From contig NZ_CP013011.1 of the NCBI RefSeq assembly GCF_001412615.1, positions 840,001-872,000 on the forward strand: a stretch of DNA of 32,000 nt, read 5' to 3'. A program made the translations under genes and the position numbers. Positions within the stretch are counted from its first letter, which is position 1. Each line of letters begins with the position of its first letter. Source of the stretch: Pyrodictium delaneyi. GTDB taxonomy: Archaea; Thermoproteota; Thermoprotei_A; Sulfolobales; Pyrodictiaceae. Below the pieces are notes generated by a model that was not told where the DNA came from, did not search any database, and saw nothing but the letters and a program-made list of their open reading frames with translations. Positions 4,708 through 30,138 of this stretch are shown here, one piece after another.

Positions 4708-4886
4708 AGCCCCTAGTTAGTTCCAAGGCCCAGGCCAGGGCAAAAAGCTGCCTCAGACTATCCAGAGCCCACGCACAATAGGCGAACACTCCACGAGCAT
4801 AACCTCCTGGACAAATCCCCGCCAAGGAGCCGCCTGGGGTCACTCAGTCCCCAGGCACCCCTGCACCCCTGTAGCCCCTGGAGCAC

Positions 4887-5609: not shown

Positions 5610-5889
5610 ACACGCCAGCAGGAAATATAAATATCAACAGCATATAGGGTAGCGCTGGCTCTTAGAGCCTAGGCGCTATCTGGCAGATTCTCCACCCGGG
5701 GGGACATCGGTAGGGTGTAGAGAAGTATTGTTATGGCTGTATAGCCGGCCGCCACACTGGTGACAACAGTCAGCCTAATCTTCTAGGTACGCCTCTATAG
5801 GCTAGTCTTCGTCTGCGCTCCTCGCCTCTCCAGGGCGGTGCCTAATTTTAGCGGCGCCTAGTGGGTAGGTAGAGTATGGTGGGACCACA

Positions 5890-6147
5890 GTGAGTAGTGG
5901 GACGATAGTCCGGCTTGACTCTAAGGGCCGGGTCACCCTACCCCTAGAGGTTAGGAGGAAGCTGGGGCTCCGTGAGGGCTCCCAGCTCCGGGTCCTCGTC
6001 GACGAGGAGAAGGGGAGGATAATAATCGAGAAAGCAGAGTCCATAGCCGAGAGGTACTACGGCGTATTCAGGCCCCGTAGACGCGTAGACGACGTAGAGG
6101 AGGAGATAGAGGAGGCGGTGTACAGGGCTTGGCTAGGAGATACATAG
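5890..6147 (+). CDS. vapB: AbrB/SpoVT-fold antitoxin (VapB-like)
   Basis: GTG start. LDSKGRVTLPLEVRRKLGLREGSQLRVLVDEE is the swapped-hairpin AbrB/MazE motif. Overlaps the downstream PIN gene by 19 nt. Confidence 0.75.
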   Translation: MSSGTIVRLDSKGRVTLPLEVRRKLGLREGSQLRVLVDEEKGRIIIEKAESIAERYYGVFRPRRRVDDVEEEIEEAVYRAWLGDT

Positions 6148-6545
6148 ACGTAAACATCCTCGTCTACTGGCTCACCGGGCACCCAGAGTACGGCAGAAAA
6201 GCCCTAGAGTGGGTGAAGAGAGTAGAAGCCGCCACAAGAGGCACATACATAACAGCAAGCATCACCATCTACGAGCTCATAGTAGTCCTCGCACGGCTCA
6301 CCGGGAGAAAACTCAGCGACAAGAGCCTCGTAGACAAGGTCCTCGAGGCGCTCAGCGGGCTACAGGGGCTACGAGTAGTCGAGACAACACAGCAAGACTA
6401 CCTAGACGCAGCCCGCTACATGGAGGCCTACAGCCTAGACCTCGAAGACGCCCTACACCTAGCCGTCGCGCTACGACACAAAGCCGCCGAGATAGTGTCA
6501 AACGACACCGACTTCGACAAGACACCCCTCAAGCGCGTCTTCTAG
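6129..6545 (+). CDS. vapC: PIN-domain ribonuclease toxin (VapC-like)
   Basis: TTG start. The four acidic PIN positions are visible: YIDVN..., TIYELIVV, DLEDALHLA, SNDTDFDK. Confidence 0.75.
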   Translation: MARRYIDVNILVYWLTGHPEYGRKALEWVKRVEAATRGTYITASITIYELIVVLARLTGRKLSDKSLVDKVLEALSGLQGLRVVETTQQDYLDAARYMEAYSLDLEDALHLAVALRHKAAEIVSNDTDFDKTPLKRVF

Positions 6546-6753
6546 ACCGCAAGCCGGAAGGGCACACCCCGATACCCCTGGGGCCTGGCTATCAGCTGTG
6601 TCTTGCGGGTATAGTAGTCTGTCAGCCTTGCTGTCCTTGCCCGGGCTAGTGTCTGCCTCACACTCTCTATTACCTCAAGAAGCATGTGTTTATGCAGTTG
6701 TCCTCATAGCCATAGAGTATAGGGGCTCCCTGAGCAGCCTACAGGAGGAGACC

Positions 6754-6915
6754 GTGGCCAAGGCTATCTACGAGAAGGGCGTGCTAAGGCCCCTCCAGGA
6801 TCTCGGCCTCCAGGAGGGGGAGGAGGTCGAGATAATCGTCCGCCGGAGGCCCAGCCTCAGGCAGGAGGACGTCGACCGGGTTATCGAGGAGATAGATGAT
6901 GAAGGTATTCTTTGA
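6754..6915 (+). CDS. Small antitoxin-family protein (AF2212/DUF104-like)
   Basis: Conserved core AKAIYEKGVLRPLQDLGLQEGEEVEIIV. It is paralogous to the 7873..8115 and 31473..31676 products. A GTG at 6754 preceded by aggaggag is a better start than the track start at 6598, whose extension is hydrophobic/low-complexity and absent from the paralogs. Confidence 0.65.
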   Translation: MAKAIYEKGVLRPLQDLGLQEGEEVEIIVRRRPSLRQEDVDRVIEEIDDEGIL

Positions 6916-7330
6916 CTCCAACGTCCTCCTCGGTGCCTCGCCGGCGCCAGGGAGGCCAAGAAGCTTGTAGATATGGCTGAGCACGGCGAATGGGAGGACT
7001 ATGTGAACGATATCGTGGTCAGCGAAGTCGTCTACGGCTACCCGAGACTAGCCCTCAACGTCTCCAGGTACAAGCCCTAGAGACTACATAGCCAAGCACA
7101 TAGACGTGGTCGAGGAGCTGCTAGAGCAGGACGTCTACCCACTATTCACGAGCTTCAGGCACATCCCGACCAATGCTGGAGTAGACATGATAGTAGAGTA
7201 CATGACCAGCTACAGGCTATTGCCAAACGACGCGCTGATAGCCGCGACGTGCCGGAGCCACGGTATAGAGGCGATAGCCACCTTCGACGAGGACTTCAAG
7301 CAGATACCATGGCTCAAGGTGATACCATAG
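6896..7330 (+). pseudogene. vapC: PIN-domain toxin gene disrupted by two frameshifts
   Basis: ATG 6896/6899 gives MMKVFFDSNVLL..., stopping at TAG 6968-6970. The homologous sequence continues in another frame (CLAGAREAKKLVDMAEHGEWEDYVNDIVVSEVVYGYPRLALNVSRYKP*, stop 7078). It then returns to the first frame (RDYIAKHIDVVEELLEQ...LPNDALIAATCRSHGIEAIATFDEDFKQIPWLKVIP, end 7330). The C-terminus parallels the intact paralog at 7408..7854 (...FDGDFRRVPWLKVIS). Confidence 0.65.
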
Positions 7331-7407
7331 CCCGGGGGAGACACCCCGGAGCCAGCACGTATCTCTGCTCCGCGCCTCGGCGAGGAGCCTCAGGGAGCAA
7401 GCTTGTT

Positions 7408-7854
7408 TCACGAGATTACCTTCAGCCACGGCACCCTCCTGAAGTCCCCGTCAAACGTCAGGATAGTGTCTATGCCGTAGTGCCTACATGTAAGGGCTAT
7501 TATAGCGTCGCTTGGCGTCAGATTATAGTTTTTCATGACCTCTAGTAGTTCGCTTGGCTCTGCATGATCTCTTAGAACCGTAATACCGAGTTCCCGGAGC
7601 ATTTCCACGTATTCCTCTAGCTTATCAGCTGCGAAGCCCAGCCCCTTCTCTCTTATATGCTCCTTCAGCCTGTCAAGCCTCCTAATCCCCAGCCTGACCC
7701 TGGCTAGACGACGTATTATGACGAACTCGACCTCATTGATTATCCCTACTGTCACTGCTAAGTCCGGGTGAGATGCTAGAAGGAGCTCTGCTTCATCGGC
7801 TCTCTCCCCTTCAAGCAGGTAGTGTATGAATACGTTCGAGTCAACCAGCTTCAA
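7408..7854 (-). CDS. vapC: PIN-domain toxin (VapC-like), intact
   Basis: MKLVDSNVFIHYLL, INEVEFVI, TPSDAIIALT and LTFDGDFRRV supply the acidic PIN residues. An antitoxin-like ORF sits 18 nt upstream on the same strand. Confidence 0.75.
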   Translation of the reverse strand: MKLVDSNVFIHYLLEGERADEAELLLASHPDLAVTVGIINEVEFVIIRRLARVRLGIRRLDRLKEHIREKGLGFAADKLEEYVEMLRELGITVLRDHAEPSELLEVMKNYNLTPSDAIIALTCRHYGIDTILTFDGDFRRVPWLKVIS

Positions 7855-7872
7855 CCCTTACCCCCACGGAGC

Positions 7873-8115
7873 CTAGAGGCGCTCGAACTCCGCCTCAAGC
7901 AGTAGCTCCTCTATCTCCTCCCTACTCGCCCTGCCAAGCATCCCCCTATACTTCCGTAGACGTCTAACCCTATCCTCAAACCTCTCCAGGCGGACGAAAA
8001 CCTCCTCACCCTCTTCCAGGTCCACATCGTCTAGCAGCTTGAGGACACCACCCTCATACCTAGCCCTTACAACCCTGGACAAGGCCAGCCCACCCAAACC
8101 AGTTGACCAGTGCAT
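7873..8115 (-). CDS. Small antitoxin-family protein (AF2212/DUF104-like)
   Basis: SRVVRARYEGGVLKLLDDVDLEEGEEVFVRLE...RKYRGMLG parallels MARIVRARYEKGVLRPLEDLGLDEGEEVIIRV...RKYKGVLG at 31473. By analogy the real start is probably the TTG at 8082. Confidence 0.65.
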   Translation of the reverse strand: MHWSTGLGGLALSRVVRARYEGGVLKLLDDVDLEEGEEVFVRLERFEDRVRRLRKYRGMLGRASREEIEELLLEAEFERL

Positions 8116-9148: not shown

Positions 9149-9320
9149 CTACAATGCCCCATACGTAGCAGAACATCAGTATTACCATAACTATGCTACT
9201 AACTACCTTCAAACTAGAAGCCAGAAATCAACATCCTTGGCCTTCTACAAGACACAACCCCTAATGGAGGAATCCACAGAGGATAGGCCCAGAGCCAGCG
9301 GCCCAGGGGCTAAGCAGCAG

Positions 9321-10445
9321 CTACCTGCGGCTCCGGAGGACTAGTAGGTAGAGCCTCCTGCCCGGCCGGAACCTCTCGCCGAGCGGCTTCGTCTCCGCTT
9401 GTAGGCCGTACTCCCTGGCTAGCCTCGCGAGGGCCTCGTGGACCGGGATGTATGCTCCGCCGAGTATGCTGTCCCCGATGGTGTACCATGCCTGCCACTC
9501 TAGCCTCCCGGCTAGAAGCTCGATGTGCCTCTCCATGGCGTGGAAGTACTGGAGGAGGAAGCGGCGGTAGCCGCGGGCCCTGCTCCCCCTTATCCTAGAG
9601 GCTAGCTCGCGGAGCCAGGGATGCCGTGTCTCCTGTTTCCAGGCCCTGGCGGCTGCCTCGCATGCCGGCATCTGTATGCCTCGGAGCCAGCCGAGGTCCT
9701 CGCTGCCGTGGGCCAGGCCGGCCCAGAGTAGCTCGAGCATGGTGTGTCTCACGTAGTCCAGGTTGTTGGCGAAGGGCGGGCTCGTCAGCAGCCCACAGAT
9801 CCTCCCTGGGAGCCACGCGGTGGAGTCACCCCATACGAGGTCCACTGGGCCGCAGAACCGGTGGCCACGGAGGTCCCCGACGGCCCCGCGGAGGGCCTCC
9901 GCGAAGCCCTGGTACACATCGTGCCTTGTGGCCTCTACTGTTCCCCGGCGGAACCTGGGAGCCGGGCTGCGGCGGAGCAGGCTATACTCGCCTGCCACCC
10001 GGCCGAGGACCGCTAGTAGGAGGGGCCTCCAGTCCCGGGGTGCTTCTTCTACGAGGCGGCGGAGGCGGCCGAGAGCAGTGAGCACCTCCCGTGGGTGGTA
10101 CCGTTCTAGCCTGGGGCTCGGCACTAGGGGCTCCAGCTCCTCCACCGAGCCAAGCCGCTCCAGGGTCCAGTTGAGTACCGCGTCGTAGTCGAGGGGCCTG
10201 GTCTTCGCGGCTACGAGGATGAGGCTCCACGGGTCGGCGTCTACGCCTAGGAAGGAGAAGCACCTCTTCTGCGCCTCGACTGCTACCACGCCGCTCCCCA
10301 CGAACGGGTCTACGATGCCCCGGCAGCCCGCCTCCCTCGCGGCCTGCATGAACTCTTCTACGAGGCTTGGGCTGAGCCCGTGCTCGGTGTACACGCCGAT
10401 ACGGTGAACCGCGATACTGCGCCAAGGGTTAGCCAGAGCAGGCAA
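9321..10445 (-). CDS. DNA methyltransferase (amino-MTase; motif I before motif IV; SPPF variant)
   Basis: SAM-binding motif I in IVDPFVGSGVVAVEA. Catalytic motif IV in LLTSPPFANNLDY. Last gene of a four-gene minus-strand run, 22 nt after the endonuclease-like gene. Confidence 0.75.
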   Translation of the reverse strand: MPALANPWRSIAVHRIGVYTEHGLSPSLVEEFMQAAREAGCRGIVDPFVGSGVVAVEAQKRCFSFLGVDADPWSLILVAAKTRPLDYDAVLNWTLERLGSVEELEPLVPSPRLERYHPREVLTALGRLRRLVEEAPRDWRPLLLAVLGRVAGEYSLLRRSPAPRFRRGTVEATRHDVYQGFAEALRGAVGDLRGHRFCGPVDLVWGDSTAWLPGRICGLLTSPPFANNLDYVRHTMLELLWAGLAHGSEDLGWLRGIQMPACEAAARAWKQETRHPWLRELASRIRGSRARGYRRFLLQYFHAMERHIELLAGRLEWQAWYTIGDSILGGAYIPVHEALARLAREYGLQAETKPLGERFRPGRRLYLLVLRSRR

Positions 10446-10467
10446 CCCGGCCCTCCTCTAAGCGCTT

Positions 10468-10827
10468 CTAGAGCCAGTCGTAGTAGCCGTACCTGACTCT
10501 CCGGATCTTCACGCCTAGCTGCCTGGCGAGCCTCTGTGCTGCGGTAGTTATCCCTGTCTCGTAGGAAAGCACTAGCACTGGTATGGCCCTCGCCCTCCCG
10601 GCCTTCCTGGCTAGTTTCTCTACCTCGCTCCTGGTCACAGGTTTCGAGGGGCGGTGCTTGACCTCGAACACGTACCTCCTCCCCGCGTGCCACGCCACTA
10701 TGTCTATCTCCCCGTAGCTCCTAACGATATTCCTCTCTATGCCATAGTAGCCCTTGGACTCTAGCAGCCTGGCCACGAAGGACTCGTAGCCGCTCCCGCG
10801 CCCCCTCCGGCGGGGCATTCCCGCCAC
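10468..10827 (-). CDS. Small PD-(D/E)xK endonuclease (Mrr-cat-like; Hjc-like fold not excluded)
   Basis: FVARLLESKGYY...GEIDIVAWHAGRRYVFEVKHR...VTRSEVEKLARKA...IPVLVLSYETGITTAAQRLARQLGVKI fits the D-x(12)-ExK core and the overall pattern of Mrr-type restriction endonuclease catalytic domains. Confidence 0.6.
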   Translation of the reverse strand: MAGMPRRRGRGSGYESFVARLLESKGYYGIERNIVRSYGEIDIVAWHAGRRYVFEVKHRPSKPVTRSEVEKLARKAGRARAIPVLVLSYETGITTAAQRLARQLGVKIRRVRYGYYDWL

Positions 10828-10893
10828 CCTAGGGGGAGCTGAAGCACGGACATGCAGCCGTGGCCCTGGGAGATGCTCGCTGAGGGGAGTGTG

Positions 10894-12474
10894 CTAGGCT
10901 AGCCTTACCCGGACGGCGTCTCCCTGCTCGGCTAGCTCCTGCATCTTCTGGGCTGTACGTGATAGCCTACGGCCAGCCCAGCTGCCCCCAGCCCTGGCGA
11001 GTTTGCCTACGGCGCCTATGACGACCATTAGCTTGTGGTGGCGGCTGAGCTGGACGTTCAGCACCTGGGGCTCGTTGTAGTACATTGTCTGGTAGAAGTT
11101 GTCGTCTACCCAGGGGTCGTAGTCGCTGCGCCCGCTATACTCCTTGCCGAGTATCGCCACTACTGCGTCTGCCTCGCCGCCTATAACGGCCTGGACCGTG
11201 GCTGAGAGCGGCGGGTCGAAGTACTGGCCATAGTTGTGCTTGAAGTTGAAGGCTACGTTGGTGACTATGTCGCTGTACGGGGCTATAACCATCGTAGAGG
11301 GCTCCGCGTAGCTCCCCAGCTCGCGGGCAGCCTTGGCGTAGGCCTGTAGTATGAGGGAGACCTCGAGCCCCAGTTTGGTCCTCCTCTTGTCATAGGTGGA
11401 CGCCGTCCTCGAGGCGCTGAACTCGCCTGTCTCGACTACTACGAGGGGCTTCTCCGAGGTGACGGCCTCGTACACCGCGTTGAAGAGCCTGTCCAGCTCG
11501 GTACTCCAGGAGACAGTGCTGCGCAGCATCCGCTCTACCCGGGTCCTCGCGTCCTCGAATAGCTCGCGGAGGCTGCGTAGCCTCCAGTGTGCCGGCTCGT
11601 AGGCGCGTAGCCTGTCGTCGTAGAACCCGTGGCTTATCGGCTGCTCGCTGGGCCCGGGGAGCCTGTACGTGGTGTCGAGCATCACGAAGTTGTCGCGCTC
11701 TAGGCCGTGCTGGCGCACCAGGTGCATGACCTTGTTCATCAGTAGGCTTACCCTCTGGGCGCGGAACGCCTCCGGTACCGTTATCGCCTGCTCCGGGTCG
11801 CCGAGGGCGACGAGCGAGGCCGGGTAGTCGCTGTACCTCATTATAGCGTCGGCTATGCTTATGAAGGCCCGGTAGTAGGGGCTCTTACTAGCCTCGTCCA
11901 CCACCAGGTGTATCCTGCCCGGCTTGCTCGTGAAGCGGCCGCTCACCCTCTGGTACTCCGTCGCGAACACTATCCGGACCACGCTGGGGTCCACGGGCCC
12001 GTAGACCATGCTCTTCAGCGCCGTCTCGCTCGGCGGGCTCTCGTCCACCCCCTTTGCCCGGAACACCTTCTCGCAGTCCCTGACCGTCACCTTGGAGCCG
12101 TAGACGCGGGCACGGTCCACGATGTCCCGGAGCGTGTAGCCCCGTGCTAGGAGCGCGGCAGCAACCCTCTCAAACGCCTGCGCAGCCAGGTGGTTCGTAG
12201 GGGCAACATATATCACCAGCTCATCCAGCATATCGTCAAGCATGTCGGCCATGTGGTCGTGCACGAAGCTCTCGACTACGCTAGTCTTGCCCGTCCCCGG
12301 CGGCCCCTGGACGCCGCCCAGCGGCGCCTTAGCCGAGCCCTTCATCACCCGGACCAGTATGTCCACCGCCTTCTGCTGGCTACTGTTCAGCCGGAGGACG
12401 CGCCTACCAGACCTAGCCTCCTCGGCGCGCCTCCACGCCTCGGCGAGCAGCTCGCAGACATTGTAGCGGGCCAT
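10894..12474 (-). CDS. Superfamily 1B helicase (Upf1/Dna2-like, AAA_11/AAA_12 type)
   Basis: Full motif set present. Q: LNSSQQKAV. I: GPPGTGKT. Ia: VAPTNHLAAQAFERV. II: LVVDEASK. III: LVALGDPEQ. IV: LDTTYRLPGP. V: TVQAVIGGEADAVV. VI: LNVQLSRHHKLMVVIG. Confidence 0.8.
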   Translation of the reverse strand: MARYNVCELLAEAWRRAEEARSGRRVLRLNSSQQKAVDILVRVMKGSAKAPLGGVQGPPGTGKTSVVESFVHDHMADMLDDMLDELVIYVAPTNHLAAQAFERVAAALLARGYTLRDIVDRARVYGSKVTVRDCEKVFRAKGVDESPPSETALKSMVYGPVDPSVVRIVFATEYQRVSGRFTSKPGRIHLVVDEASKSPYYRAFISIADAIMRYSDYPASLVALGDPEQAITVPEAFRAQRVSLLMNKVMHLVRQHGLERDNFVMLDTTYRLPGPSEQPISHGFYDDRLRAYEPAHWRLRSLRELFEDARTRVERMLRSTVSWSTELDRLFNAVYEAVTSEKPLVVVETGEFSASRTASTYDKRRTKLGLEVSLILQAYAKAARELGSYAEPSTMVIAPYSDIVTNVAFNFKHNYGQYFDPPLSATVQAVIGGEADAVVAILGKEYSGRSDYDPWVDDNFYQTMYYNEPQVLNVQLSRHHKLMVVIGAVGKLARAGGSWAGRRLSRTAQKMQELAEQGDAVRVRLA

Positions 12475-12494
12475 CCCCGGCGCACCCCGTCGGG

Positions 12495-14342
12495 CTATAT
12501 CCTCACGCCGCCGAAGAGCAGGGCTAGCATGTCCTCGGCCTCCAGCTGCTCCTCCCTACCCAGCCTCTCCAGCGCCTCAGCACCCCTCCTCACAGTGCCC
12601 ATTTCCGCCGCCGTTACGCCCAGCAGCTCTAGCTGGGTCAGCTCCACGTTCACCTCGAGCGCCACAACGCCGTGGAACACTTCGGGGCTCGTCTCGGCCA
12701 GGTGCTCGAGCAGCGCCGGGTATATCCTGGAGAGCTTGTTGGCAGGCGCGACCCTCACGTAGACCCGGTCGGCCCCCTCGTCGTACTCCACGCTGCTGAC
12801 AGAGCCGTGGAAGCTTGCCCGGAGAAGCGGGTCACGTACATGCCCCTCGTTGAGGAACACCGCCGCCGGCTTGCCCTCCCGCAGGGTGAAGAGGTGCATG
12901 TTCTCCCGCTCCCAGCGGAGCGGCGGCCTCGCCAGCACCAGCTCGCCGCCATCAACCCAGGCCTCGTCGAACAGGTCCACCCTGGAGCCGTCGGGCAGCA
13001 CCCGGTTGACCAGCCTGCCGCGTATCCAGTCCATGCCGCTGCCGTACCTCAGTGCTAGGTCCCTGAAGTGCTTGTACGGGGCGAGCGCGTTCTCGCGGTG
13101 AGCGTATATCGCGAACCGGGCCCTCCAGGACTCGCTGCGGAAGGCCTTGAAGTCCGCGTAGCGGGGGTCCCGGCCGCTACTGAGGTAGTAGACGCAGGCC
13201 TCCCGGACGTTGTCCGGGCACAGCTTGCAGGGCCAGCGGAGCTCCTCGCGCAGCGGGCTACCCATGGGGAGCCGTACCCTGTCCCCGTCCAGCACCAGCT
13301 CGGGGACGAGGCGGAACACCGGCCTCCTCTTACCGCCCCTAGTCACGACGCTGCATATCTCCTCCACGTTGCGCGCATACTTGAGGTGCTCCCGCAGGTC
13401 GGTGACAGAGAGCGTGAGGTGCTCCGCCGCCAGCACCAGCCCCGCCATGAGCCTCCGCAGCTCGTGGTAGTCGCAGCCGCCCCGCCCGCCGATGCACAGC
13501 CGGGGGTGCTTCACGTAGACCCTCGAAGCCCTCCCCGTAGGCGAGGGCCTCACAACACCAGGCACGACGCGGGCGCCCCTGCCGTCCGGCCCCTCCCCGA
13601 GCACGGCGGAGACGTAGCTCTCGAACCCGTCCCCGGCGAGGCCCAGCCGCTCCGCCTCAAGCATAGCGTAGACATACGCCTGCGCTATGTCCACCTTGGT
13701 GACCTGGGCCGTCCTCCCCTCCCCAGGGCTATACGACTTCCACTCGATCACCGCAGCGTACCTGCCCACCGGGTCCTCCACGACAACATCGGCGACCCCC
13801 CAGACGTGGAGACGATAGCTCATAAACTGGTGCTCAGCAAGCACCCGGCTCCTCGCAAGAGCCTCCTCCGCCTCATCGCCCGCCAGAGCACGGAACGCAG
13901 TCTCCACGAACTCCACGCCAGCCCGGGCAAGCTCCTCCGAGGTCCGGATTATCTCGTCCTCCCGCGACTGGTCAATCTTCTCAACATCAAGAACCCCATC
14001 AGACTTAAGCCGGCCAAACGCCTCCTCCACAAGCCCACCGTAGTCGACACTACCCCCGCCCACATGCTCCCGCAGCGCCCGGGGAAACACCAGGGCAAGA
14101 ACCAGGTGGACAGCCTCACCCTTACCAGGCAGCACCGAGTGATAGAACCCACGAACACCCATCGTCTCCCCGAGACGCGCCATAAACACGCACTGCGCAG
14201 CAGCAGTAGCAACACTCCGGGCCTTCACAAGGTGCGCAGTAGCCCCGAGAAGACGGCCACCATCCTCCCCACAGCCAGGCCGACCGGTCGCCTCCACAAA
14301 GAACCTCTCAACAAGCAAGACACGAGGCCCCATATAGCACAC
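12495..14342 (-). CDS. RecB/Cas4-like PD-(D/E)xK nuclease-domain protein with Cys cluster and C-terminal uncharacterised domain
   Basis: HVWGVADVVVED...AAVIEWKSY...VDIAQAYVYAML gives D / ExK / QxxxY in the order typical of RecB-family (Cas4, AddB, Dna2) nucleases. Downstream cysteines: CIGGRGGC and WPCKLCPDNVREAC (CxxCx7C). The GTG at 14342 or the ATG at 14333 may be the start. The helicase gene follows after 20 nt. Confidence 0.6.
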   Translation of the reverse strand: MCYMGPRVLLVERFFVEATGRPGCGEDGGRLLGATAHLVKARSVATAAAQCVFMARLGETMGVRGFYHSVLPGKGEAVHLVLALVFPRALREHVGGGSVDYGGLVEEAFGRLKSDGVLDVEKIDQSREDEIIRTSEELARAGVEFVETAFRALAGDEAEEALARSRVLAEHQFMSYRLHVWGVADVVVEDPVGRYAAVIEWKSYSPGEGRTAQVTKVDIAQAYVYAMLEAERLGLAGDGFESYVSAVLGEGPDGRGARVVPGVVRPSPTGRASRVYVKHPRLCIGGRGGCDYHELRRLMAGLVLAAEHLTLSVTDLREHLKYARNVEEICSVVTRGGKRRPVFRLVPELVLDGDRVRLPMGSPLREELRWPCKLCPDNVREACVYYLSSGRDPRYADFKAFRSESWRARFAIYAHRENALAPYKHFRDLALRYGSGMDWIRGRLVNRVLPDGSRVDLFDEAWVDGGELVLARPPLRWERENMHLFTLREGKPAAVFLNEGHVRDPLLRASFHGSVSSVEYDEGADRVYVRVAPANKLSRIYPALLEHLAETSPEVFHGVVALEVNVELTQLELLGVTAAEMGTVRRGAEALERLGREEQLEAEDMLALLFGGVRI

Positions 14343-14484
14343 GCCGCGCCATAAAACCCAGTATTAAATACAGCGCAACAACACATCTACACAACAAGCC
14401 AAAACACCCCGGCCACCGGCTACCAAGAAACGCAGAACATATATAACAATCAAGACCCACCGCGGGCACAAGGGCAACAACACC
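14343..14484. promoter_or_regulatory. Divergent promoter region between the two arms of the methylase/ATPase/nuclease locus
   Basis: TATA-like attaaata (about 14363-14371) sits about 20-30 nt from the minus-strand start. acatatataac (about 14437-14447) sits about 40 nt upstream of the TTG at 14485. The + strand is extremely C+A-rich. A 10-bp direct repeat GCAACAACAC occurs at 14375-14384 and 14474-14483. Confidence 0.45.
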
Positions 14485-17139
14485 TTGGAGCCGCTCATAG
14501 CACACTACTACCCAACCAAAGAAGCCGGAGAAGAGTCACAAAGAGAACGAGGGACAAGAATACCGCCACCGCTCTTCTATCTCCATCTCTGGTGGGCGCG
14601 CCGCCCCCTAGCAGCAAGTCGCGCCACAGTCGCAGCCCTCGCAGTAGACACCAACAAGCCACCCGACAAGAGGTTCGTAGAAGAGCTCCTCCAAGCCATC
14701 AAGCTCGTGCCAGGGCTCCCCCGGCCAGCGTACAACTACAGCCCGGACCGGGAATGGATAGCCAGGCACAGCCGCGTAAAGGAGGCCACGCTCCTAGACC
14801 CCTTCGCCGGGGGCGGTAGCATCCCCCTCGAAGCCCTCCGCCTAGGATTCAAGAAGGTAGTGGCAGTCGAGTACAACCCCGTAGCCTACATCATACTCAA
14901 AGCAACCCTCGAGTACCCCCTCCGCTACGGCAAGAAGCTGGTAAAAGACGTAGAGTACTGGGCCAAGTGGCTAGTAGAGAACGTCCGCCGCGAGCTAGCC
15001 CCCTACTACCCACCACACCCCAAGGGACGACCCACAAACTACATCTGGGTAAGAGTCTACACATGCCCCGACGGCAAAAAGGTACCAAGCCTCAGCAACC
15101 CCATACTCTCAAAAGACAACAAGATAGCGCTAAAGCTGGAAGGCTTCGACGAGGAAGGCAACCCAATACTAAGGGTAGTAAATGTAAACGATGTAAGTAA
15201 GGCTAAGGAGCAGTACGCCACTATACGCCGCAAGAAGCTACGCTGCCCCACAGCCACCCTCGACTCCAAGGAGCTCCAACGCCAGTACCAAGAAGCCATG
15301 AAGCAGTGGGAGGAAGAAGGACGCTACGGCTACCACCCAGCAGTCCTAGCAGCCGTCAAGCTAGAAGACGGCAGCTACGCAGAGCCCACACAAGAGATGA
15401 TAGAAGCATATCGAAAAGCTGAACAGTACCTTCGAGAGCACTGGGACGAGCTGTTAGCGGAAGACCTCATCCCGGCAGAGCAGATTCCCGAGGGCGAGAA
15501 GACCCGCGAAGTACTACTACGCGGCATAGACAAGTTCTACAAACTCTTCAATGCACGCCAGCTGCTAGTCCATGCGATAGTAGTGAAGTACATTAGAGAA
15601 GCCTACCAAGAAATGCTGAACAAGGGCTACGACGAGGACTATGCAAAGGCGGTTGTAACCTATCTTGCTCTCGGTCACGGTAAGCTTTTAGACTATAGCT
15701 CTACTATGACCATGTGGCATATTAAAGGAGTAATAGGTCACACATTTGCTCGTCATGCGTACACATTTGGTAACGACTTTGCCGAAGGCGACATTATTCC
15801 TGGCAATAAGCAGGGGGATCTACTGAGCTGGGTGTTCTTTAGCAATACGGGTATCGTGAAGGCTTTGGAGCGTATTGTTGGCCTCCTCGAGGGTGCTAGC
15901 GGTGAGGTTGAGGTTGTTCTTGGTGATGCTGCTGATCCTGCTACCTATGCTGGAGTCGATGGTATAGACTTTGTTGTTGCTGATCCGCCGTATTACGATA
16001 ATGTGCAGTATGGTGAGCTTAGTGACTTCTTCTATGTCTGGTTTAAGCGTAGCCTTGGCGAGTTGTATCCGGAGGCGTTTGTCTGGGATACTGTGCCTAA
16101 GGATTCTGAGATTGTTGTTAACCGTGCTCGTGGGAGGGATGGGGCGTGGTTTGAGTCGAGGCTTCGGGCGGTGTTTGAGCTTGTGAGGGAGCAGGGTGCT
16201 GGGAGGCTTGCTGTGATGTATGCTCACCGGAGCAGTGAGGGCCTCTACGCGATGTTTGGGGCGCTTCTTGGGGCTGGCTGGAAGCCTGTTGGCGTGTGGG
16301 GCGTTGCTGCGGAGCAGCCTCGTAGCCAGCATATTGTGGGCAAGGCTGCTGCCCGGAGCATGCTTGTCATAGGCGCTGTGCCCCGTAGTGGCGGCTCTGG
16401 GTGTTTCTGGGATGCGCGGCTGCAGCGCCGTGTCGAAGAGGCCGTTGAGGCCGCTGTGAGGGAGACGCTAGGGCTCGGGCTTGGCCTTGTCGACGCGGTC
16501 TTGGCTGGTGTTGGTGCCGCGTTTCGTGTTGCTGGGGAGTGCTGGCCTCTCCAGAGGCTCGAGGGCGGCGTGGTCGGTGTCAGGGAGGTGGTTGACCTTG
16601 CTAGCCGTGTTGCGAGCCGTGCTGTGACCCGGGAGGTGCTGCGGGCTGAGATCGACCCATTGTCGACCATGTACTTCCTCGCCAGGGTCGTGTACGGCGA
16701 GCCGGAGTACGACGAGCTTAGGCGGCTGGGCTATGCTGCTGGGCTGAGCCACGAGGTGTTCATAGAGAGGTTCACCAAGGGATCGAGGACGAGCCGTGGC
16801 CGGAAGGTGTACCCGCTGAAGAGGCTCGACGAGATAGACGCTGTGCTGAGGCCGGGCTCGCTGGTGGAGGCTCTGGCTGTCGCCGTGCGGAGGTTCCTCG
16901 TGGCTGGCGTGGAGGAGGCTTTGGAGGCGCTGCGTGAGGCCGGCTATGGGCTCGACACGGCTGTGTGCCGGTACGTGGAGGCGCTTATGGCTGACAGCGA
17001 GGGCGGCGAGAAGAAGGCGCTTCAGGGTATCTACGCGGCCTGTGTGCAGCGTGGCCTGGCCGGCGGCCGCGGCGGCAGAGGCCCGGGCGAGGGCTCCGGC
17101 GGCCAGCGCACGCTCGTCGAGTTCCTGGGCAGAAGGTAG
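14485..17139 (+). CDS. DUF1156-type DNA methyltransferase (DPPY, probable N6-adenine)
   Basis: N-terminal LHLWWARRPLAASRA is the DUF1156 signature as I recall it. Motif I: LLDPFAGGGSIPLEA. Motif IV: FVVADPPYYDNVQYGELSDFFYVW. TTG start. Confidence 0.8.
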   Translation: MEPLIAHYYPTKEAGEESQRERGTRIPPPLFYLHLWWARRPLAASRATVAALAVDTNKPPDKRFVEELLQAIKLVPGLPRPAYNYSPDREWIARHSRVKEATLLDPFAGGGSIPLEALRLGFKKVVAVEYNPVAYIILKATLEYPLRYGKKLVKDVEYWAKWLVENVRRELAPYYPPHPKGRPTNYIWVRVYTCPDGKKVPSLSNPILSKDNKIALKLEGFDEEGNPILRVVNVNDVSKAKEQYATIRRKKLRCPTATLDSKELQRQYQEAMKQWEEEGRYGYHPAVLAAVKLEDGSYAEPTQEMIEAYRKAEQYLREHWDELLAEDLIPAEQIPEGEKTREVLLRGIDKFYKLFNARQLLVHAIVVKYIREAYQEMLNKGYDEDYAKAVVTYLALGHGKLLDYSSTMTMWHIKGVIGHTFARHAYTFGNDFAEGDIIPGNKQGDLLSWVFFSNTGIVKALERIVGLLEGASGEVEVVLGDAADPATYAGVDGIDFVVADPPYYDNVQYGELSDFFYVWFKRSLGELYPEAFVWDTVPKDSEIVVNRARGRDGAWFESRLRAVFELVREQGAGRLAVMYAHRSSEGLYAMFGALLGAGWKPVGVWGVAAEQPRSQHIVGKAAARSMLVIGAVPRSGGSGCFWDARLQRRVEEAVEAAVRETLGLGLGLVDAVLAGVGAAFRVAGECWPLQRLEGGVVGVREVVDLASRVASRAVTREVLRAEIDPLSTMYFLARVVYGEPEYDELRRLGYAAGLSHEVFIERFTKGSRTSRGRKVYPLKRLDEIDAVLRPGSLVEALAVAVRRFLVAGVEEALEALREAGYGLDTAVCRYVEALMADSEGGEKKALQGIYAACVQRGLAGGRGGRGPGEGSGGQRTLVEFLGRR

Positions 17140-17201
17140 CGCCCCGTGTACCGCCTAGCCTTGTGCGTGTTGTGGCCTGGTGCTAGTCGGGGTGGCTTGT
17201 C

Positions 17202-20200
17202 TTGGCTGGTGGGCGTGCTGGCTGGGTCCCGTTTGAGGAGATCCGGGAGGGGCATATCACGGATAGTAGCTTCGTGGTGCAGCTCTGGTATGTGCACCGT
17301 GGCTGCCCGGGTGGCGGCTGGAGCTGCGTTGATGAGCGCTACCGTGACCCGGTGAAGTTCTTTGACCGTACCTACTTCTCTGAGGGGCTGCGGCAGGTCC
17401 TCGGCAACGTGGTGCGGAGGCTGGTCTACGGGGGCGAGGGTAACGCTGTTGTGCTCCTGCACACCGGGTTTGGCGGGGGTAAGTCGCACACGCTTCTCTC
17501 GATATACCACGTTGCCCGGGGGCTCGGGGAGGCGGCTAGGAGCCGCCGGCTCCGGGAGTTCCTGCACGAGGTGGGCGTCGAGCCGGGGGAGGCGGGCTTC
17601 CGCTCGGCGGTAGCGGTGTTCGACGGGGCTGCTGTGGACCCGGTGCGGCTACGCGATGTCTATGGGGCGCCTAACGCCTGGGTGTTTATCCTCGAGGAGC
17701 TTGTCCGCTCGGCAGGCGCCAGCGAGCTGGCTAGACGTGTGGCTCGTTACCGGAGGGCTGCGCCGGGCAGCGAGGAGATTGGCGAGATTCTTGCCCGGCT
17801 CGAGGGGGCCGGGGTCAGGCCGGTTATACTCATCGACGAAATAGCGATGTATCTCCGGAACCTGGAGGTGCGTGGCGACGAGGAGGCTCGGCGCGAGGCC
17901 GAGGGCCTTAGGATATTCCTCCACAACCTCGCCGTGGCAGTGTCGAACTCCAGGTACGCTGTGCTGGCTATCGCTACACCGCAGCAGTACGAGGGGGAGT
18001 CCCAGCAGGTGATAGCCACTCTCTCGGACGTGAAGAGGGTAGCCATGCCGACCTCCATTGTGGGCCGGGGCGATGCTGCTGCTGTGCTCCGGGCTGCTCT
18101 CCTAGAGGAGGTGGACGAGGCCGCTGCCGCCGCTGTGGCTGAGAAGTATGCGAGGCTCTACGAGGGGGAGCGGGACCGGTTCCCCGTGGACGCCTCTATG
18201 CCGGAGTACCGGCGGCGGATGGCCTCGAGCTACCCGTTCCACCCGTTCCTGGTGGACGTGCTCTATGGGGAGCTTGCGGAGGTCCCTGGGTTCCAGGGTA
18301 CGCGCGACATACTGCGTATCGTGGCGTGGGCGCTGTACTGGAGGAGCCGGGGCGGCGACACCTACGATATGCTTGTCCTAGGCGACCTGGACGCCACCAG
18401 GAGGGAGATACTAGACGAGCTCCTCACCAGGAACGAGCTCCTGAAGAAGCTCCGCAATGCCGTGTCCTACGACGTGGAGGTCATAGAGGAGATTGACGAG
18501 AAGCTGGCCCGCGAGGGACTGCCACGCGTCGCCTCGCTCACCTACTCGGCCGTACTAGTAAGGAGCGCTGCTGGCAAGCCCTCCCGGCCCGAGGAGGTAG
18601 CGCTGGGCGCCGTCACACCGGTCCGCGGCGTCACTGTGCAGCTCGTCCAGCACATGCTGGAGAGCGAGCTCCTAAGGAAGACCGCGCACCTCCACCGCAT
18701 CGACCGGGGCGGCGAGACACTGTACATGGTCAAGTCCCGCGCCAACATCTACATGCTGGTCCACCGTATAGCGGGCGAGATACTGGCTAGGAGCAGGGAC
18801 CGTGTGCTAGAGAGGCTCCGCAGGGAGATAGGGAAGATAGCGAAGCCCACGGCTGAGTGCAGGATAGTTGTCTGGCCCCGGCACCCCGGCCAGGTGGAGG
18901 ACACGCCGAGGATTAAGCTGGTGCTCCTGGACCCAGAGGAGCCAGCCGTAGCCGCGGGCGGGGGCAGGCTCCTCGGCCTCCTAGAGAGGTTCACCATGTA
19001 CAGCCAGGCAGGCGCCGGAGCCGCCTACCGGAAGCACCGGAACACCGTGCTCTACCTGGTCCCGGATATGAGGCTCTACCAGCAGCTACTCCAGAGCATA
19101 GCCAGGCTCATGGCTGTCGAGAGACTGATGCAGCCAGAGCAGAAGCAGTACTACGGCCTAGAGAAGGCCGACGAGGACGAGCTGAACAGGATGAGGAACG
19201 AGCTGCTGGACGAGATCGCCTCTGACACTGCTGCACTCTACGCGACGCTCTACTACCCGCTCGAAGCCCGGCCCGACGGCAGCGTGGTCTTCGACAAAGC
19301 CGAGCTAGACCCCTCCAAGATCCGGGGCAGCGGCCTCTGGCAGACAGTGCGGGAGAAGCTACGCGAGATAGGCAAACTAGCCACGGACGTGCCCGAGGAG
19401 TACGTGCTAACCGAGATACTAGCCAAGAGGTATAACGCGCTACGCCGCCCACTAGGCGTCGACGAGATAGCCTCAGCGTTCACCGAGGACCCCAGCAGCG
19501 TACTACTCATAGACCCGGAGAAGGTTGTACGGGAGAAGCTAGCCAGCCTCGTAGAGCGCGGCAGACTGGTAGCCCTCACCCCCAGCGGCCCCGTCTGCAT
19601 GAAGAGGCCCGCGCTAGCCAGCAAGGACGTACGCTTCGCGCCCTGCAGCTCCCCAGAGGCCCGCCAGAGCTGCGTAGTGGAGACCGGGGATGAGGGCCTC
19701 GAGTGCCGCCCCAAGCCCCCGCAGGACTGCAGAAGCCCCGTATGGGACACCGAGACCAGAACCTGGAAGTGCACCGAGCAAGCCGAGCCAGGAGAGGAGA
19801 CAGGAGAAACAGAGGAGACCGGCCGAGAGATAGGCAGAGCCGTAGCCGAGCCCCCGAGGCAGCCGGCGAGGCCGTGGACGCTGAGCTATCGGGGCATCAA
19901 CCCGTACCAGCTCCGCGAGGAGCTGCTGAAGACAGACCGGCTAGAGGAGCCCGTGGAGGCCATTAGCCTCCGGCTAGTACTGAGCGGCGGGGTGGACCAG
20001 CAGCTCGTCTCCGGGCTAAAGATATTACTACAGGCCGTGAAGGACATGGCGTCCCGGGGGAGCGGCTACTCCCTAAACGCCCGGGCCGTGGTGAGGTCAG
20101 AGAGCAGGGTATCAAGCGTGACCATAGACGCTGAGACTGCTAGCATAGAGCAGCTCTACAGGATCCTAGACGTAGCTAGGAGCCTGGGAGGCATAGCCGA

Positions 20201-20345
20201 GGTGCGGCTCGACATAGACCTAAGGAGGCGGGAGGGCAAGCCCCTACTACTCCGCGACGTAGCTGACGCGCTGAACCGCAGGATGCTGGCCAAGTACCCC
20301 GGCCTACAGCTAGAGGACGTGTACATAGAGCTCTCACGGGGCTAG
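17202..20345 (+). CDS. DUF499-type large P-loop ATPase (BrxC/PglY-like)
   Basis: N-terminal W-VPFEEI...YRDPVKFFDRTYFSEGLRQVL, followed by Walker A in LLHTGFGGGKSHTLLSIYH and Walker B in VILIDEIAMYL. This order and wording match the DUF499 family. 1047 aa, 62 nt downstream of the methylase gene. Confidence 0.75.
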   Translation: MAGGRAGWVPFEEIREGHITDSSFVVQLWYVHRGCPGGGWSCVDERYRDPVKFFDRTYFSEGLRQVLGNVVRRLVYGGEGNAVVLLHTGFGGGKSHTLLSIYHVARGLGEAARSRRLREFLHEVGVEPGEAGFRSAVAVFDGAAVDPVRLRDVYGAPNAWVFILEELVRSAGASELARRVARYRRAAPGSEEIGEILARLEGAGVRPVILIDEIAMYLRNLEVRGDEEARREAEGLRIFLHNLAVAVSNSRYAVLAIATPQQYEGESQQVIATLSDVKRVAMPTSIVGRGDAAAVLRAALLEEVDEAAAAAVAEKYARLYEGERDRFPVDASMPEYRRRMASSYPFHPFLVDVLYGELAEVPGFQGTRDILRIVAWALYWRSRGGDTYDMLVLGDLDATRREILDELLTRNELLKKLRNAVSYDVEVIEEIDEKLAREGLPRVASLTYSAVLVRSAAGKPSRPEEVALGAVTPVRGVTVQLVQHMLESELLRKTAHLHRIDRGGETLYMVKSRANIYMLVHRIAGEILARSRDRVLERLRREIGKIAKPTAECRIVVWPRHPGQVEDTPRIKLVLLDPEEPAVAAGGGRLLGLLERFTMYSQAGAGAAYRKHRNTVLYLVPDMRLYQQLLQSIARLMAVERLMQPEQKQYYGLEKADEDELNRMRNELLDEIASDTAALYATLYYPLEARPDGSVVFDKAELDPSKIRGSGLWQTVREKLREIGKLATDVPEEYVLTEILAKRYNALRRPLGVDEIASAFTEDPSSVLLIDPEKVVREKLASLVERGRLVALTPSGPVCMKRPALASKDVRFAPCSSPEARQSCVVETGDEGLECRPKPPQDCRSPVWDTETRTWKCTEQAEPGEETGETEETGREIGRAVAEPPRQPARPWTLSYRGINPYQLREELLKTDRLEEPVEAISLRLVLSGGVDQQLVSGLKILLQAVKDMASRGSGYSLNARAVVRSESRVSSVTIDAETASIEQLYRILDVARSLGGIAEVRLDIDLRRREGKPLLLRDVADALNRRMLAKYPGLQLEDVYIELSRG

Positions 20346-20935
20346 ACAAACGCCTCCCAGCACACTCCTATTTTCCTCGAGACGAGGGTCACGAGCCAGG
20401 ACCACTCCCCCGGGGGCTTGAGGGGGAGCGCCTCCTCGCCGCCCGCCTCCTCGACGAGCCGGGCGAGCCCCGGGAGCACGAGCACCACGCGCGTGCGCTG
20501 CGGCAGGCTACGGATAGTCCAGAAGACTAGCAGCCGCCACCACCGGTCACCCAGGTCAGCACCGTCGAGCAGCAGCACCACCGTGCCAGCACCGGGGCAG
20601 CCACCCTTGCACAGCAGCCCAGCAGCCTCGGCCACACCCAGCTCCAGGTAGCCGCCGGGGTCGCCACCCGCCTCGTCCCGGGCATCCTCGAGCGAGCCAC
20701 AAACGAGCACACTACGCGGCCGCGAACCAGGCCGGAGACACATCACAAGATCCCGCACATCACCCACACTACTGTCCACGCCCCGGCCACGCCGAGGCCC
20801 CCCAGGCCTAGCTGGCTTGGCAAGCCCTACAGCCCTCAGGTATTCGTCTAGCGTTCGCTGAGCAGCCACCTGCCAGCCCCACAACGCAGCTTCCGAATGA
20901 GGCGTGAACACCCGCCTCTGCGATAGTAACACCAT
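20342..20935 (-). CDS. Hypothetical protein (197 aa)
   Basis: Its stop codon overlaps the ATPase stop by 4 nt (convergent). GC-rich with a G-first-position codon bias and no competing ORF. No motif recognised. Confidence 0.45.
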   Translation of the reverse strand: MVLLSQRRVFTPHSEAALWGWQVAAQRTLDEYLRAVGLAKPARPGGPRRGRGVDSSVGDVRDLVMCLRPGSRPRSVLVCGSLEDARDEAGGDPGGYLELGVAEAAGLLCKGGCPGAGTVVLLLDGADLGDRWWRLLVFWTIRSLPQRTRVVLVLPGLARLVEEAGGEEALPLKPPGEWSWLVTLVSRKIGVCWEAFV

Positions 20936-21126
20936 GCACGTCTAGAGACACAACTCCTGAACAGAATAGCATCATAGAGATAATAGAACCCGAACCTAGA
21001 ATGGGCAAAGTGTGTAGTCTCCCTAAGGAGGAAGGGCATCTGCAGTGTATTTCTACCCTATCATGCTCAGTCAAATAAGCACACTAATCTTTATAGATCT
21101 AAGGGCGTCTAGAGTATCATGATCTC

Positions 21127-22516: not shown

Positions 22517-23539
22517 TTAATGGCAAAGAATTCGCTCAATCGATTTATCCGGAGCCGGGGCTGCAGACTTTTGCCCTATTATATTTTCGAGACTATTGAG
22601 CAAGTACGTAAAGCTAGTTATTATTACCGTCGCAACTACTTCTTCACGTCTTCTAGCCTTCACAACTAAGCAATTATTGCCTATGACTTTTTCGCTTGCA
22701 CCTGCTAGTATTAGTACGCCGTATCTCGCATTAGCTAGGTACATGTAGCTATATACTTGTTTTCTATAGCTCAGAATACTTTCCCGACTAAACTTTGTCC
22801 TAAGCTTGACCTCAGCAATAACTCTATACCTTGTTTGGTCCGGTTTATTAACTAGAGTTATAAGAGCATCCGGTCTTAAGGGCTTAATTTTCCCTAGGGA
22901 AAACTCTTCTCTGACACCCCATTCATGCATAAGTGTTATAGTGTTATCCACACATTCAGTTCTAATCCTGAATTTTAGAGCATGCCCGCTATAGAAGGGA
23001 TAAACTTCGCATCCTTGATCAGCAGACGCATGGCCAACCGTCATCAGCAAGTATAGTGTGAGTATAGCGAGGAACTGTACAATATAACCCATGAGTTTAT
23101 CACTGGCAAGTTTAATATAATAAGCTTTTTTAAAAATTAAGTCATTTAATATATCAGTAGATAATTTTGCTTTTAACAATAGCTTCGATGCAAGAACATC
23201 GTTGACAAGGTATGACATATCGTATATATCCTCATCGAAAGCATAATCGAAAGAAAGCCGCATACGTGGGACATATCTACTATTGTACACAAAATTTTTT
23301 ATGAAAGTTTCACATAACCTAGTATAGCTGCTGTTATCTAGACAGAAATCTATTATCTTTTTTCGAATACTCCTATTAGTGAACAGTATATTGAACTCTC
23401 GCGAAACTAAGTTATGTAGCCTGTTAACTCCTCTAATACTACTTTTTTCTAGCTGTTCTAAGAGCCATGAAAATCGTAGAATATATTTTATGTAAGTATT
23501 TTCAATATTGCTAGCTTCTTCATAGGTCACAAGAATCAC
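22517..23539 (-). CDS. McrC-like PD-(D/E)xK nuclease subunit
   Basis: C-terminal LRPDALITLVN...YRVIAEVKLR is a PD...ExK core. The gene starts 6 nt after the McrB-like gene ends. Very AT-rich. Confidence 0.6.
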   Translation of the reverse strand: MILVTYEEASNIENTYIKYILRFSWLLEQLEKSSIRGVNRLHNLVSREFNILFTNRSIRKKIIDFCLDNSSYTRLCETFIKNFVYNSRYVPRMRLSFDYAFDEDIYDMSYLVNDVLASKLLLKAKLSTDILNDLIFKKAYYIKLASDKLMGYIVQFLAILTLYLLMTVGHASADQGCEVYPFYSGHALKFRIRTECVDNTITLMHEWGVREEFSLGKIKPLRPDALITLVNKPDQTRYRVIAEVKLRTKFSRESILSYRKQVYSYMYLANARYGVLILAGASEKVIGNNCLVVKARRREEVVATVIITSFTYLLNSLENIIGQKSAAPAPDKSIERILCH

Positions 23540-23545
23540 CTTATA

Positions 23546-25342: not shown

Positions 25343-25469
25343 GTAAAGTGGTGATTTTCAAGTAAAATATATAATTTTTGAGCCTTTAATGCAGTTCACA
25401 GTCATTATGTACTACCTTTGGTTTAAAATTACTCCCGACAATAGGAACGAGAGAATTGGAGATGTGGCT
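25343..25469 (-). promoter_or_regulatory. AT-rich promoter region of the McrBC-like operon
   Basis: aaaatatataattttt at about 25364-25380 is centred about 25-35 nt upstream of the ATG at 25342 on the coding strand. Confidence 0.4.
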
Positions 25470-30068: not shown

Positions 30069-30138
30069 CGTGTGTAGGTTTTTATCGCGGGTTCTACTGG
30101 TTCGGGGGTGGTGTGCTGGTGTGGCGCGCTTCCTCCTA

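Follow-up and report, generated by a model that had tools for sequence, protein, structure and literature searches.

A 32-kb stretch of the Pyrodictium delaneyi genome (NZ_CP013011.1, GCF_001412615.1, positions 840,001-872,000; hereafter the window, to which coordinates refer unless a locus is named) harbors an 11.6-kb cassette (9321-20935), which is likely a mobile, restriction-modification (R-M)-like anti-virus or anti-plasmid system of (hyper)thermophilic archaea, with a split Dna2-like enzyme replacing the Snf2-nuclease of its relatives. Judged from sequence, the conserved core consists of two DNA methyltransferases (MT1 and MT2), a DUF499 ATPase, a nuclease and a helicase, and the locus is evolutionarily related to the Hma or DUF499-centred BREX-related (BR) systems; catalytic motifs are intact in all five core proteins. 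What is known of this arrangement is its HmaB/HmaC half, whereas the Snf2-less five-gene form is apparently undescribed, as no description was found in the literature searched, which yielded nothing beyond the Snf2 form and UvrD-Cas4 fusions that are unrelated (other literature may differ). Pyrodictium, Hyperthermus, Pyrolobus and Desulfurococcales are not mentioned in the supplement text of the BR paper (PMC12839542).

The cassette is organized head-to-head, with MT2, a small endonuclease, the helicase and the nuclease on the minus arm, MT1 and the ATPase on the plus arm, and a convergent open reading frame (ORF) behind the latter. This layout had been proposed in an earlier, sequence-only reading of the same DNA, and the ORF list reproduced all seven ORFs at the same coordinates, together with the 20-66 nt gaps within the arms (22, 66 and 20 nt in the minus arm and 62 nt in the plus arm) and the 142-bp spacer between them. 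The DUF1156, DUF499, RecB/Cas4-like and SF1B assignments of that reading were likewise upheld by Pfam and PADLOC profile searches.

The plus arm and the Hma/BR systems

An operon of the form COG1743-DUF499-SWI2/SNF2 helicase-nuclease was recorded by Bell et al. (2020; PMC7641849), received the name Hma (helicase, methylase, ATPase) from Payne et al. (2021; PMC8565338) and was renamed "DUF499-centred BREX-Related (BR) systems", with types 1-3, by Rakesh and Krishnan (2026; PMC12839542). A Swi2/Snf2 helicase is found in every BR type, with a C-terminal restriction endonuclease (REase) on the Snf2 helicase in type 1, HKD and DUF3780 in type 2, and PglZ and iSTAND in type 3 (PMC12839542). The nuclease domain of HmaA is required for defense against phage T4 (PMC11232893).

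MT1 (14485-17139, plus strand, 884 aa) is a predicted N6-adenine methyltransferase of the DUF1156 type (HmaB, BR-MTase), in which DUF1156 is combined with a methyltransferase domain (Pfam DUF1156, 1.1e-12; PADLOC HmaB, 1.8e-53), and its motif I (DPFAGGGS) and motif IV (DPPY) are kept across the eight lineages aligned. Its gene lies 62 nt upstream of that for the 1047-aa AAA+ ATPase (17202-20345, plus strand), an ORC/Cdc6-like, BrxC-related protein matching Pfam DUF499 (6.7e-25) and PADLOC HmaC (9.4e-57). The Walker A and Walker B motifs of the ATPase are conserved, while its fast-evolving C-terminus is the least conserved part (conservation 0.21-0.25), which agrees with the hypervariable, sensor-like C-terminus reported for DUF499 proteins (PMC12839542). 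On these sequence matches the plus arm is the HmaB/HmaC pair of the named Hma/BR system, and because of the PADLOC matches to HmaB and HmaC the sequence-only claim that the locus matches no named system fails here (PMC8565338, PMC12839542); the claim holds in so far as Snf2 is missing, so that the described BR types are not matched. Against the NCBIfam models, MT1 scored 147.6 bits (DUF1156_antiphage, cut-off 1000 bits) and the ATPase 77.7 bits (anti-phage-associated DUF499, cut-off 1200), hence both fall far below the equivalog thresholds and the plus arm represents a divergent lineage rather than an equivalog. Homologs of the ATPase form a discrete clade at 42-95% identity, followed by a jump to 27% against canonical DUF499 proteins.

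No Swi2/Snf2 (SF2) helicase was found in the 32-kb window or in approximately 25 related loci with flanks of up to 10 kb, the only helicase being the SF1B protein of the minus arm. PglZ, DUF3780 and HKD were found neither among the window ORFs scanned nor in the gene tables of the related loci, and iSTAND, for which no Pfam model exists, was judged only from the absence of an extra conserved gene; the locus thus lacks the Snf2 helicase as well as the markers of types 1, 2 and 3. None of the large unassigned neighbors in related loci is Snf2; they comprise an Lhr helicase, an Eco57I-like enzyme, an Argonaute and an ABC ATPase. Two candidates were rejected in this survey: the 862-aa and 1030-aa neighbors at locus L022, considered as a divergent MT1 and ATPase, are an Lhr-type helicase and an Eco57I-like enzyme, and the 936-aa ORF abutting the cassette at L016, considered as the missing Snf2, has a Piwi (Argonaute) domain.

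This absence bears on the possibility that the locus is a canonical Hma/BR system with its Snf2 helicase elsewhere in the genome and the Dna2-like pair as an auxiliary or backup nuclease. The window shows just 32 kb of the genome, and about 20% of type-1 BR loci are without a helicase-nuclease fusion, with other nucleases nearby and auxiliaries being common (PMC12839542). Yet published BR loci retain the Snf2 helicase in the operon, whereas none lies within 10 kb at the approximately 25 related loci or in a five-gene insertion between rpS12 and rpS7 (discussed below), and the DUF499 clade is sharply set apart from canonical proteins by the drop from 42% to 27% identity, hence we regard this explanation as quite improbable.

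The preferred reading, that of a Snf2-less relative, thus shares with Hma/BR the succession of a DUF1156 methylase and a DUF499 ORC/Cdc6-like ATPase whose C-terminus is hypervariable, the combination of a helicase and a PD-(D/E)xK nuclease, the common occurrence in archaea and in defense islands and the R-M-like logic. It differs in having no Snf2, in the two-gene SF1B Dna2-like effector, in a second, conserved methyltransferase, in the divergent head-to-head layout as opposed to the single Hma operon, and in a DUF499 clade only ~27% identical to the canonical one. With BREX, especially type 3, and type 4 with BrxP, the locus has in common a BrxC-related ATPase and a site-specific adenine methylase, and the swapping of modification enzymes in BREX is echoed by the PAPS-reductase genes of Stygiolobus described below. 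In contrast to BREX, it lacks PglZ, BrxA/B, BrxL and BrxHII, and its ATPase is of the DUF499 type rather than BrxC (DUF6079). The absence of PglZ, BrxL, HsdS/R and Snf2, which had been noted from the sequence, was confirmed by domain scans of the window: BREX is defined by PglZ, BrxC, a PglX-type methylase and BrxA/B/L, and neither PglZ, BrxA/B/L nor Lon domains were detected there, the only link to PglX being a partial PADLOC match to the methylase (1.8e-6). Type I R-M can be set aside as well, as no Pfam or PADLOC match of the HsdS, HsdR or HsdM type was found in the cluster.

The minus arm: nuclease, helicase and second methylase

The proposed effector is encoded by two genes 20 nt apart on the minus strand, namely a 615-aa RecB/Cas4-type nuclease (12495-14342, with an alternative ATG start at 14333) and a 526-aa SF1B Upf1/Dna2-like helicase (10894-12474), which would provide the nuclease half and the RecA motor half, respectively. 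The nuclease carries an N-terminal Pfam PDDEXK_1 domain (residues 47-235), in which E170, D185, K202, Q221 and Y225 are invariant in 20 aligned members and E200 is present in at least 90%. Four cysteines in a 1+3 pattern (C51, C372-x2-C375-x5-7-C383) are also invariant in the 20 sequences and, in the style of Cas4, AddB and Dna2, are candidate ligands of an Fe-S cluster. The helicase matches Pfam AAA_19, AAA_11 and AAA_12 (SF1), with invariant GPPGTGKT, DEAS and GDPxQ motifs, and has weak PADLOC matches to Nhi (4e-4), AbiO (8e-5) and, over the C-terminus, MkoA (2e-15).

Sequence searches of the PDB were uninformative, so that structure prediction and fold search were needed: neither the nuclease profile nor the single helicase sequence returned anything useful, and the helicase profile gave only weak N-terminal matches to Upf1 and Sen1. 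The AlphaFold2 (AF2) model of the nuclease (pLDDT 89.4, pTM 0.92) has mouse Dna2 as its only significant PDB fold (5EAX/5EAW, E 5e-7, probability 1.0, approximately 620-650 columns), followed at non-significant level by accessory domains of senataxin/Sen1, Cas4, MGME1 and AddB. Its C-terminal half is conserved and modeled as a long helix and, after it, a beta unit of six strands, which we read as a putative stalk and beta-barrel by comparison with the published architecture of Dna2 and Upf1-like helicases. The helicase model (pLDDT 89) matches IGHMBP2 (3.7e-14) and Dna2 (4.8e-14 to 1.2e-13, with 5EAW at 4.8e-14), then Upf1 and Sen1, and can be placed in the Upf1-like SF1B family on the basis of these folds. 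As both halves match the Dna2 fold, the models support a Dna2-like enzyme split over two genes, an idea already put forward from the sequence; Dna2 is the sole significant fold for the nuclease and ties for the best fold of the helicase. Such a clean two-gene split would make the pair a natural system for studying the cooperation of nuclease and motor.

With eukaryotic Dna2 (PDB 5EAX/5EAW/5EAN) the pair shares the RecB-family nuclease with Cas4/AddB/Dna2-type cysteines in the 1+3 signature, the barrel and stalk (in the model), the Upf1-like SF1B motor core and the overall fold. It differs in being divided into two polypeptides of approximately 12-16% identity to Dna2, rare, found in mobile contexts and linked to methylases, where Dna2 is a single-polypeptide housekeeping protein, and in its proposed role in immunity as opposed to Okazaki-fragment or DNA-end processing. 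That Dna2 is the best structural match for both halves could also be taken to mean that the two genes encode a housekeeping archaeal Dna2-type replication or repair enzyme, with the methylases as unrelated neighbors. This is very hard to reconcile with the size and distribution of the family, which is tiny and patchy (99 representative clusters among 1.84 billion proteins), occurs in unrelated contexts and travels with the methylases as a transferable block. Fixed synteny as a housekeeping Dna2, which the sequence-only reading had named as a case against itself, was checked, and the contexts proved variable and mobile instead. The homologs of the nuclease fall into 27 clusters at 93-34% identity, and the named sources of the family are all thermophilic archaea, namely Pyrodictiaceae, Desulfurococcales, Staphylothermus, Sulfolobales and one metagenome-assembled genome (MAG) of Archaeoglobales.

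As regards the defensive reading of the Dna2-like pair, combinations of an SF1 helicase with a PD-(D/E)xK or Cas4-like nuclease are also known from Nhi and UvrD-Cas4 fusions (PMC5704561), and a DNA2-like helicase/nuclease fusion was noted beside BrxC-containing BRIGADE type I loci (bioRxiv 10.1101/2025.09.15.676423). With BRIGADE, a Dna2-like enzyme beside a BrxC-like ATPase has been seen before, and this is the nearest hint in the literature. Nhi, UvrD-Cas4 and BRIGADE fusions are, in contrast, single fused proteins without this pair of methylases, and the helicase is linked to them by the weak PADLOC matches only.

MT2 (9321-10445, minus strand, 374 aa), the fifth core gene, encodes a predicted DNA amino-methyltransferase with motif I (DPFVGSG; DPFVGxG in the family) preceding motif IV (TSPPF), both of which are invariant. 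No Pfam match was obtained for the protein at E<=0.01, and a PDB search with its profile gave only sub-threshold matches at motif I. PADLOC matches it to MTase_II (3.3e-10), and among seven family members all match MethyltransfD12 and four match N6_N4_Mtase. An SPPF motif is more typical of N4-cytosine enzymes, and the product may be m4C or m6A. Homologs at 42-67% identity adjoin the helicase gene in six other lineages. MT2 is probably the protective methylase of the effector itself, because the trio of nuclease, helicase and MT2 is also found without DUF1156 and DUF499.

Linkage of the two arms and a possible mechanism

The contexts of related genes were obtained from exact-protein look-ups and one metagenome scan, an ATPase scan of genome contigs giving only two very close relatives, and linkage was counted from a hidden Markov model (HMM) scan of all fetched loci with flanks of up to 10 kb. 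Homologs of the nuclease and of the ATPase share contigs, the nuclease and helicase genes adjoin each other wherever both positions can be seen, and MT2 nearly always flanks the helicase gene. Of 22 informative independent loci, 20 have a DUF1156 methylase gene within the cluster, a further one lying 5 kb away, and a DUF499 gene stands alongside in all 15 loci with enough flank. Co-occurrence of the arms, which had been set beforehand as a test of the sequence-only reading, is thus borne out, and the recurrence of the five core genes at approximately 20 independent loci, along with the sharp ends of the homology block described below, places the arrangement far outside chance expectation. The linkage persists to 30-35% identity despite altered gene order and orientation, extends across several orders of thermophilic archaea, and the five core proteins show parallel identity gradients across loci.

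In Pyrodictium occultum, helicase and nuclease genes are transcribed away from a DUF1156-DUF499 pair, with MT2 moved beyond the ATPase gene and ABC-transporter genes around them, and in a second genome four of the genes lie beside Cas3. Loci with only 34-39% nuclease identity contain all five genes, that for the ATPase being inverted. A Desulfurococcales lineage has the five core genes, and no others, as an insertion between rpS12 and rpS7 (L011 3994-14658; L013/L014 2552-13216), while at L034 the cassette adjoins rpL3-L4-L23 and its nuclease gene, 53% identical, is cut by the contig end. Staphylothermus hellenicus (L036) has all five genes, with a broken MT2 and a much more divergent DUF1156/DUF499 pair 1.2 kb from the trio. 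As a separate observation, the rpS12/rpS7 landing site lies inside the highly conserved RNA polymerase/ribosomal/EF-1alpha cluster, which is unusual for a defense cassette. The MT2 homolog of S. hellenicus (CP002051; L036 11634-12698) is split into 247 and 65 aa with the other four core genes intact, and this cultured organism with a complete genome offers a natural test case for the dispensability of MT2.

DNA homology to relatives of the Pyrodictium delaneyi cassette (86-88% identity) spans exactly 9335-20933 and ends there, with unrelated flanks on both sides. Judged by these boundaries and by the rpS12/rpS7 insertion, the cassette is horizontally mobile and moves as a block.

Several observations weigh against a single five-gene system. 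At L022 and L028, genes for the nuclease, helicase and MT2 occur in defense-type surroundings with no DUF1156 or DUF499 gene within several kb, hence the two halves need not occur together. In Stygiolobus caldivivus (AP024597; L037 7041-13114) the nuclease-helicase pair is flanked by two genes with PAPS-reductase domains; neither MT2 nor DUF499 was detected at this locus, and two DUF1156 genes lie 5-9 kb away. The nuclease tree, in which the trio-only loci are scattered among five-gene clades, is an unsupported neighbor-joining tree. Contact between nuclease and helicase, and of either with the ATPase, is presumed, as are the Fe-S cluster, the 5'->3' polarity and DNA rather than RNA as the substrate, which are drawn from analogy. 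The absence of Snf2, finally, covers only the 32-kb window and 10-kb flanks.

The first of these points is shared by an explanation in which two separate systems sit side by side in defense islands, an autonomous trio and a helicase-less, perhaps degenerate or orphan, HmaB/HmaC pair, without coupling between them. The trio-only loci L022 and L028, the different orientation of the ATPase gene among lineages, the divergence and distance of the S. hellenicus DUF1156/DUF499 pair and the general clustering of defense genes are all in its favor. It would, however, leave HmaB/HmaC without its obligatory effector at every such locus, yet with intact motifs, and it does not sit well with DUF1156 genes in the cluster at 20 of 22 informative loci over ~30-95% identity, the parallel divergence of the five proteins, the five-gene block in a ribosomal operon or the recurrence of the same block in different flanks. 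The scatter of the trio-only loci in five-gene clades suggests secondary loss instead, and we therefore consider two uncoupled systems unlikely. The trio is better described as a semi-autonomous unit of effector and methylase, usually but not obligatorily coupled to HmaB/HmaC.

In a coupled five-gene system, MT1 and MT2 would methylate host DNA, each at its own motif, and the DUF499 ATPase, the C-terminus of which evolves rapidly, would scan for or sense unmodified or foreign DNA and recruit or license the effector. The nuclease and helicase subunits would form a Dna2-like heterodimer, which may engage the DNA of the invader at nicks, single-stranded ends or replication intermediates and, translocating 5'->3', degrade it. 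The general model of methylases, a sensor ATPase and a helicase-nuclease, as put forward in the sequence-only reading, is thus supported as a proposal, and this division of labor corresponds to the published BR model (PMC12839542, PMC7641849).

Effector swapping is common in the evolution of defense systems. If the five-gene reading is correct, the BREX/Hma-related family gains a type without the Snf2 helicase so far described as universal, and the core of methylase and DUF499 ATPase can drive a different effector, an SF1B 5'->3' end-threading Dna2-like nuclease. A defense system seemingly specific to thermophilic archaea would also be added, where few forms of immunity other than CRISPR and classical R-M have been characterized experimentally, and Pyrodictium occultum and Staphylothermus hellenicus, both cultured and sequenced, make methylome and biochemical tests directly accessible.

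A bolder version, which we put forward tentatively and hold to be somewhat more doubtful than not, takes the trio as an autonomous, so far overlooked "Dna2-type" R-M module of hyperthermophilic archaea and as the first immune use of the Dna2 architecture. Its sensing or modification partners would be interchangeable: DUF1156 and DUF499 in most lineages, PAPS-reductase genes in the Sulfolobales, and at some loci no partner at all. The five-gene form would be a fourth, Snf2-less BREX-related type attacking single-stranded ends or replication intermediates rather than recognition sites. The PAPS-reductase genes of Stygiolobus may, by analogy, represent a swap of the modification module, recalling BrxP of type 4 BREX or Dnd-like chemistry. 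If true, an autonomous Dna2-type module might bear on the origin of the Dna2 architecture.

Accessory genes, promoter region and genomic surroundings

Two further ORFs of the cassette are, from their distribution in related sequences, dispensable lineage-specific accessories outside the conserved system, although they had been taken for core parts. The first, a 119-aa PD-(D/E)xK endonuclease (10468-10827, minus strand; Mrr_cat/YraN/Hjc-like; Pfam UPF0102 2e-9, Mrr_cat 7e-9) between the helicase and MT2 genes, was found in the HMM scan of fetched loci only in the window, L001/L016 and L002, being intact in the window and L002 and a frameshifted pseudogene in L001 (3230-3660). The suggestion that it forms a simple R-M pair with the 374-aa MT2 was not borne out, as the methylase persists without the endonuclease and tracks the nuclease-helicase pair, while the endonuclease is confined to the closest relatives; a Type II R-M pair is accordingly not what the cassette contains. 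The second, a 197-aa ORF convergent to the ATPase gene (20342-20935, minus strand), is doubtful as a gene, with no Pfam, PADLOC or NCBIfam match. It lies within the 9335-20933 homology block, is open in L001 and L002, with 33-48 synonymous against 38-46 non-synonymous codon changes, a weak coding signal next to the 207 against 59 of the ATPase, and is absent from all more distant loci.

The arms are separated by a 142-bp divergent intergenic region (14343-14484), a putative archaeal bidirectional promoter. Two AT-rich, TATA-like boxes facing opposite ways can be read directly in its sequence: TATTAAATA (14362-14370) lies 20-37 nt from the candidate starts of the nuclease and ATATATAA (14439-14446) 39-46 nt from that of MT1; with a GC content of 0.51 the spacer is the most AT-rich part of the block, the flanking genes reaching 0.58-0.67. 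The GC-rich nuclease gene is overlapped on the opposite strand by an ORF of 428 aa (13068-14354, plus strand), and further long antisense ORFs lie within the ATPase and methylase genes; these are most likely compositional artefacts of high GC.

The shared block is bracketed by a direct repeat, AGACACAAC(C/T)CCT, at 9250-9263 and 20946-20959 (13/14 identical, 9-bp exact). Its interpretation as an att site was rejected, with ~0.4 such 9-mers expected by chance, and it is a weak hint of insertion-site duplication. No tRNA gene was found in the 32-kb window and no integrase domain in the window ORFs scanned, and relatives of the nuclease were absent from the viral contigs, phage records and plasmid records searched, which gave no sign of a virus or plasmid carrying the cassette.

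The neighbors of the cassette and its relatives are defense and toxin genes, namely TumE and PIN here and Cas3, GmrSD, Argonaute, SIR2 and Eco57I-like genes elsewhere. The 86%-identical cassette of L016, from a Pyrodictiaceae MAG and on a contig shared with L001, adjoins the Argonaute gene; the 936-aa Piwi-domain protein and an AAA_21/ABC-type ATPase (L016 12507-16784) give it an island context unlike that of the window. To the left of the window's cassette lies a toxin-antitoxin cluster (4044-8115) of TumE (4044-4439), two PIN toxins (6129-6545 and 7408-7854) and an AF2212-like antitoxin (7873-8115). Together with IleRS/NUDIX housekeeping genes further left and an aminotransferase gene at 30070-31260, this cluster delimits approximately 4-29 kb as a variable island. 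To the right, the minus strand has a low-GC block (22517-26684, 35-41% as opposed to ~60-67% in the cassette) with genes for three proteins of 340, 598 and 404 aa, of which the second is an AAA_5 (McrB/dynein-type) ATPase and the third shows weak zinc-finger/VapB-like matches. None of the three matched a PADLOC model, and the block could be a McrBC-like or unknown defense pair of foreign origin.

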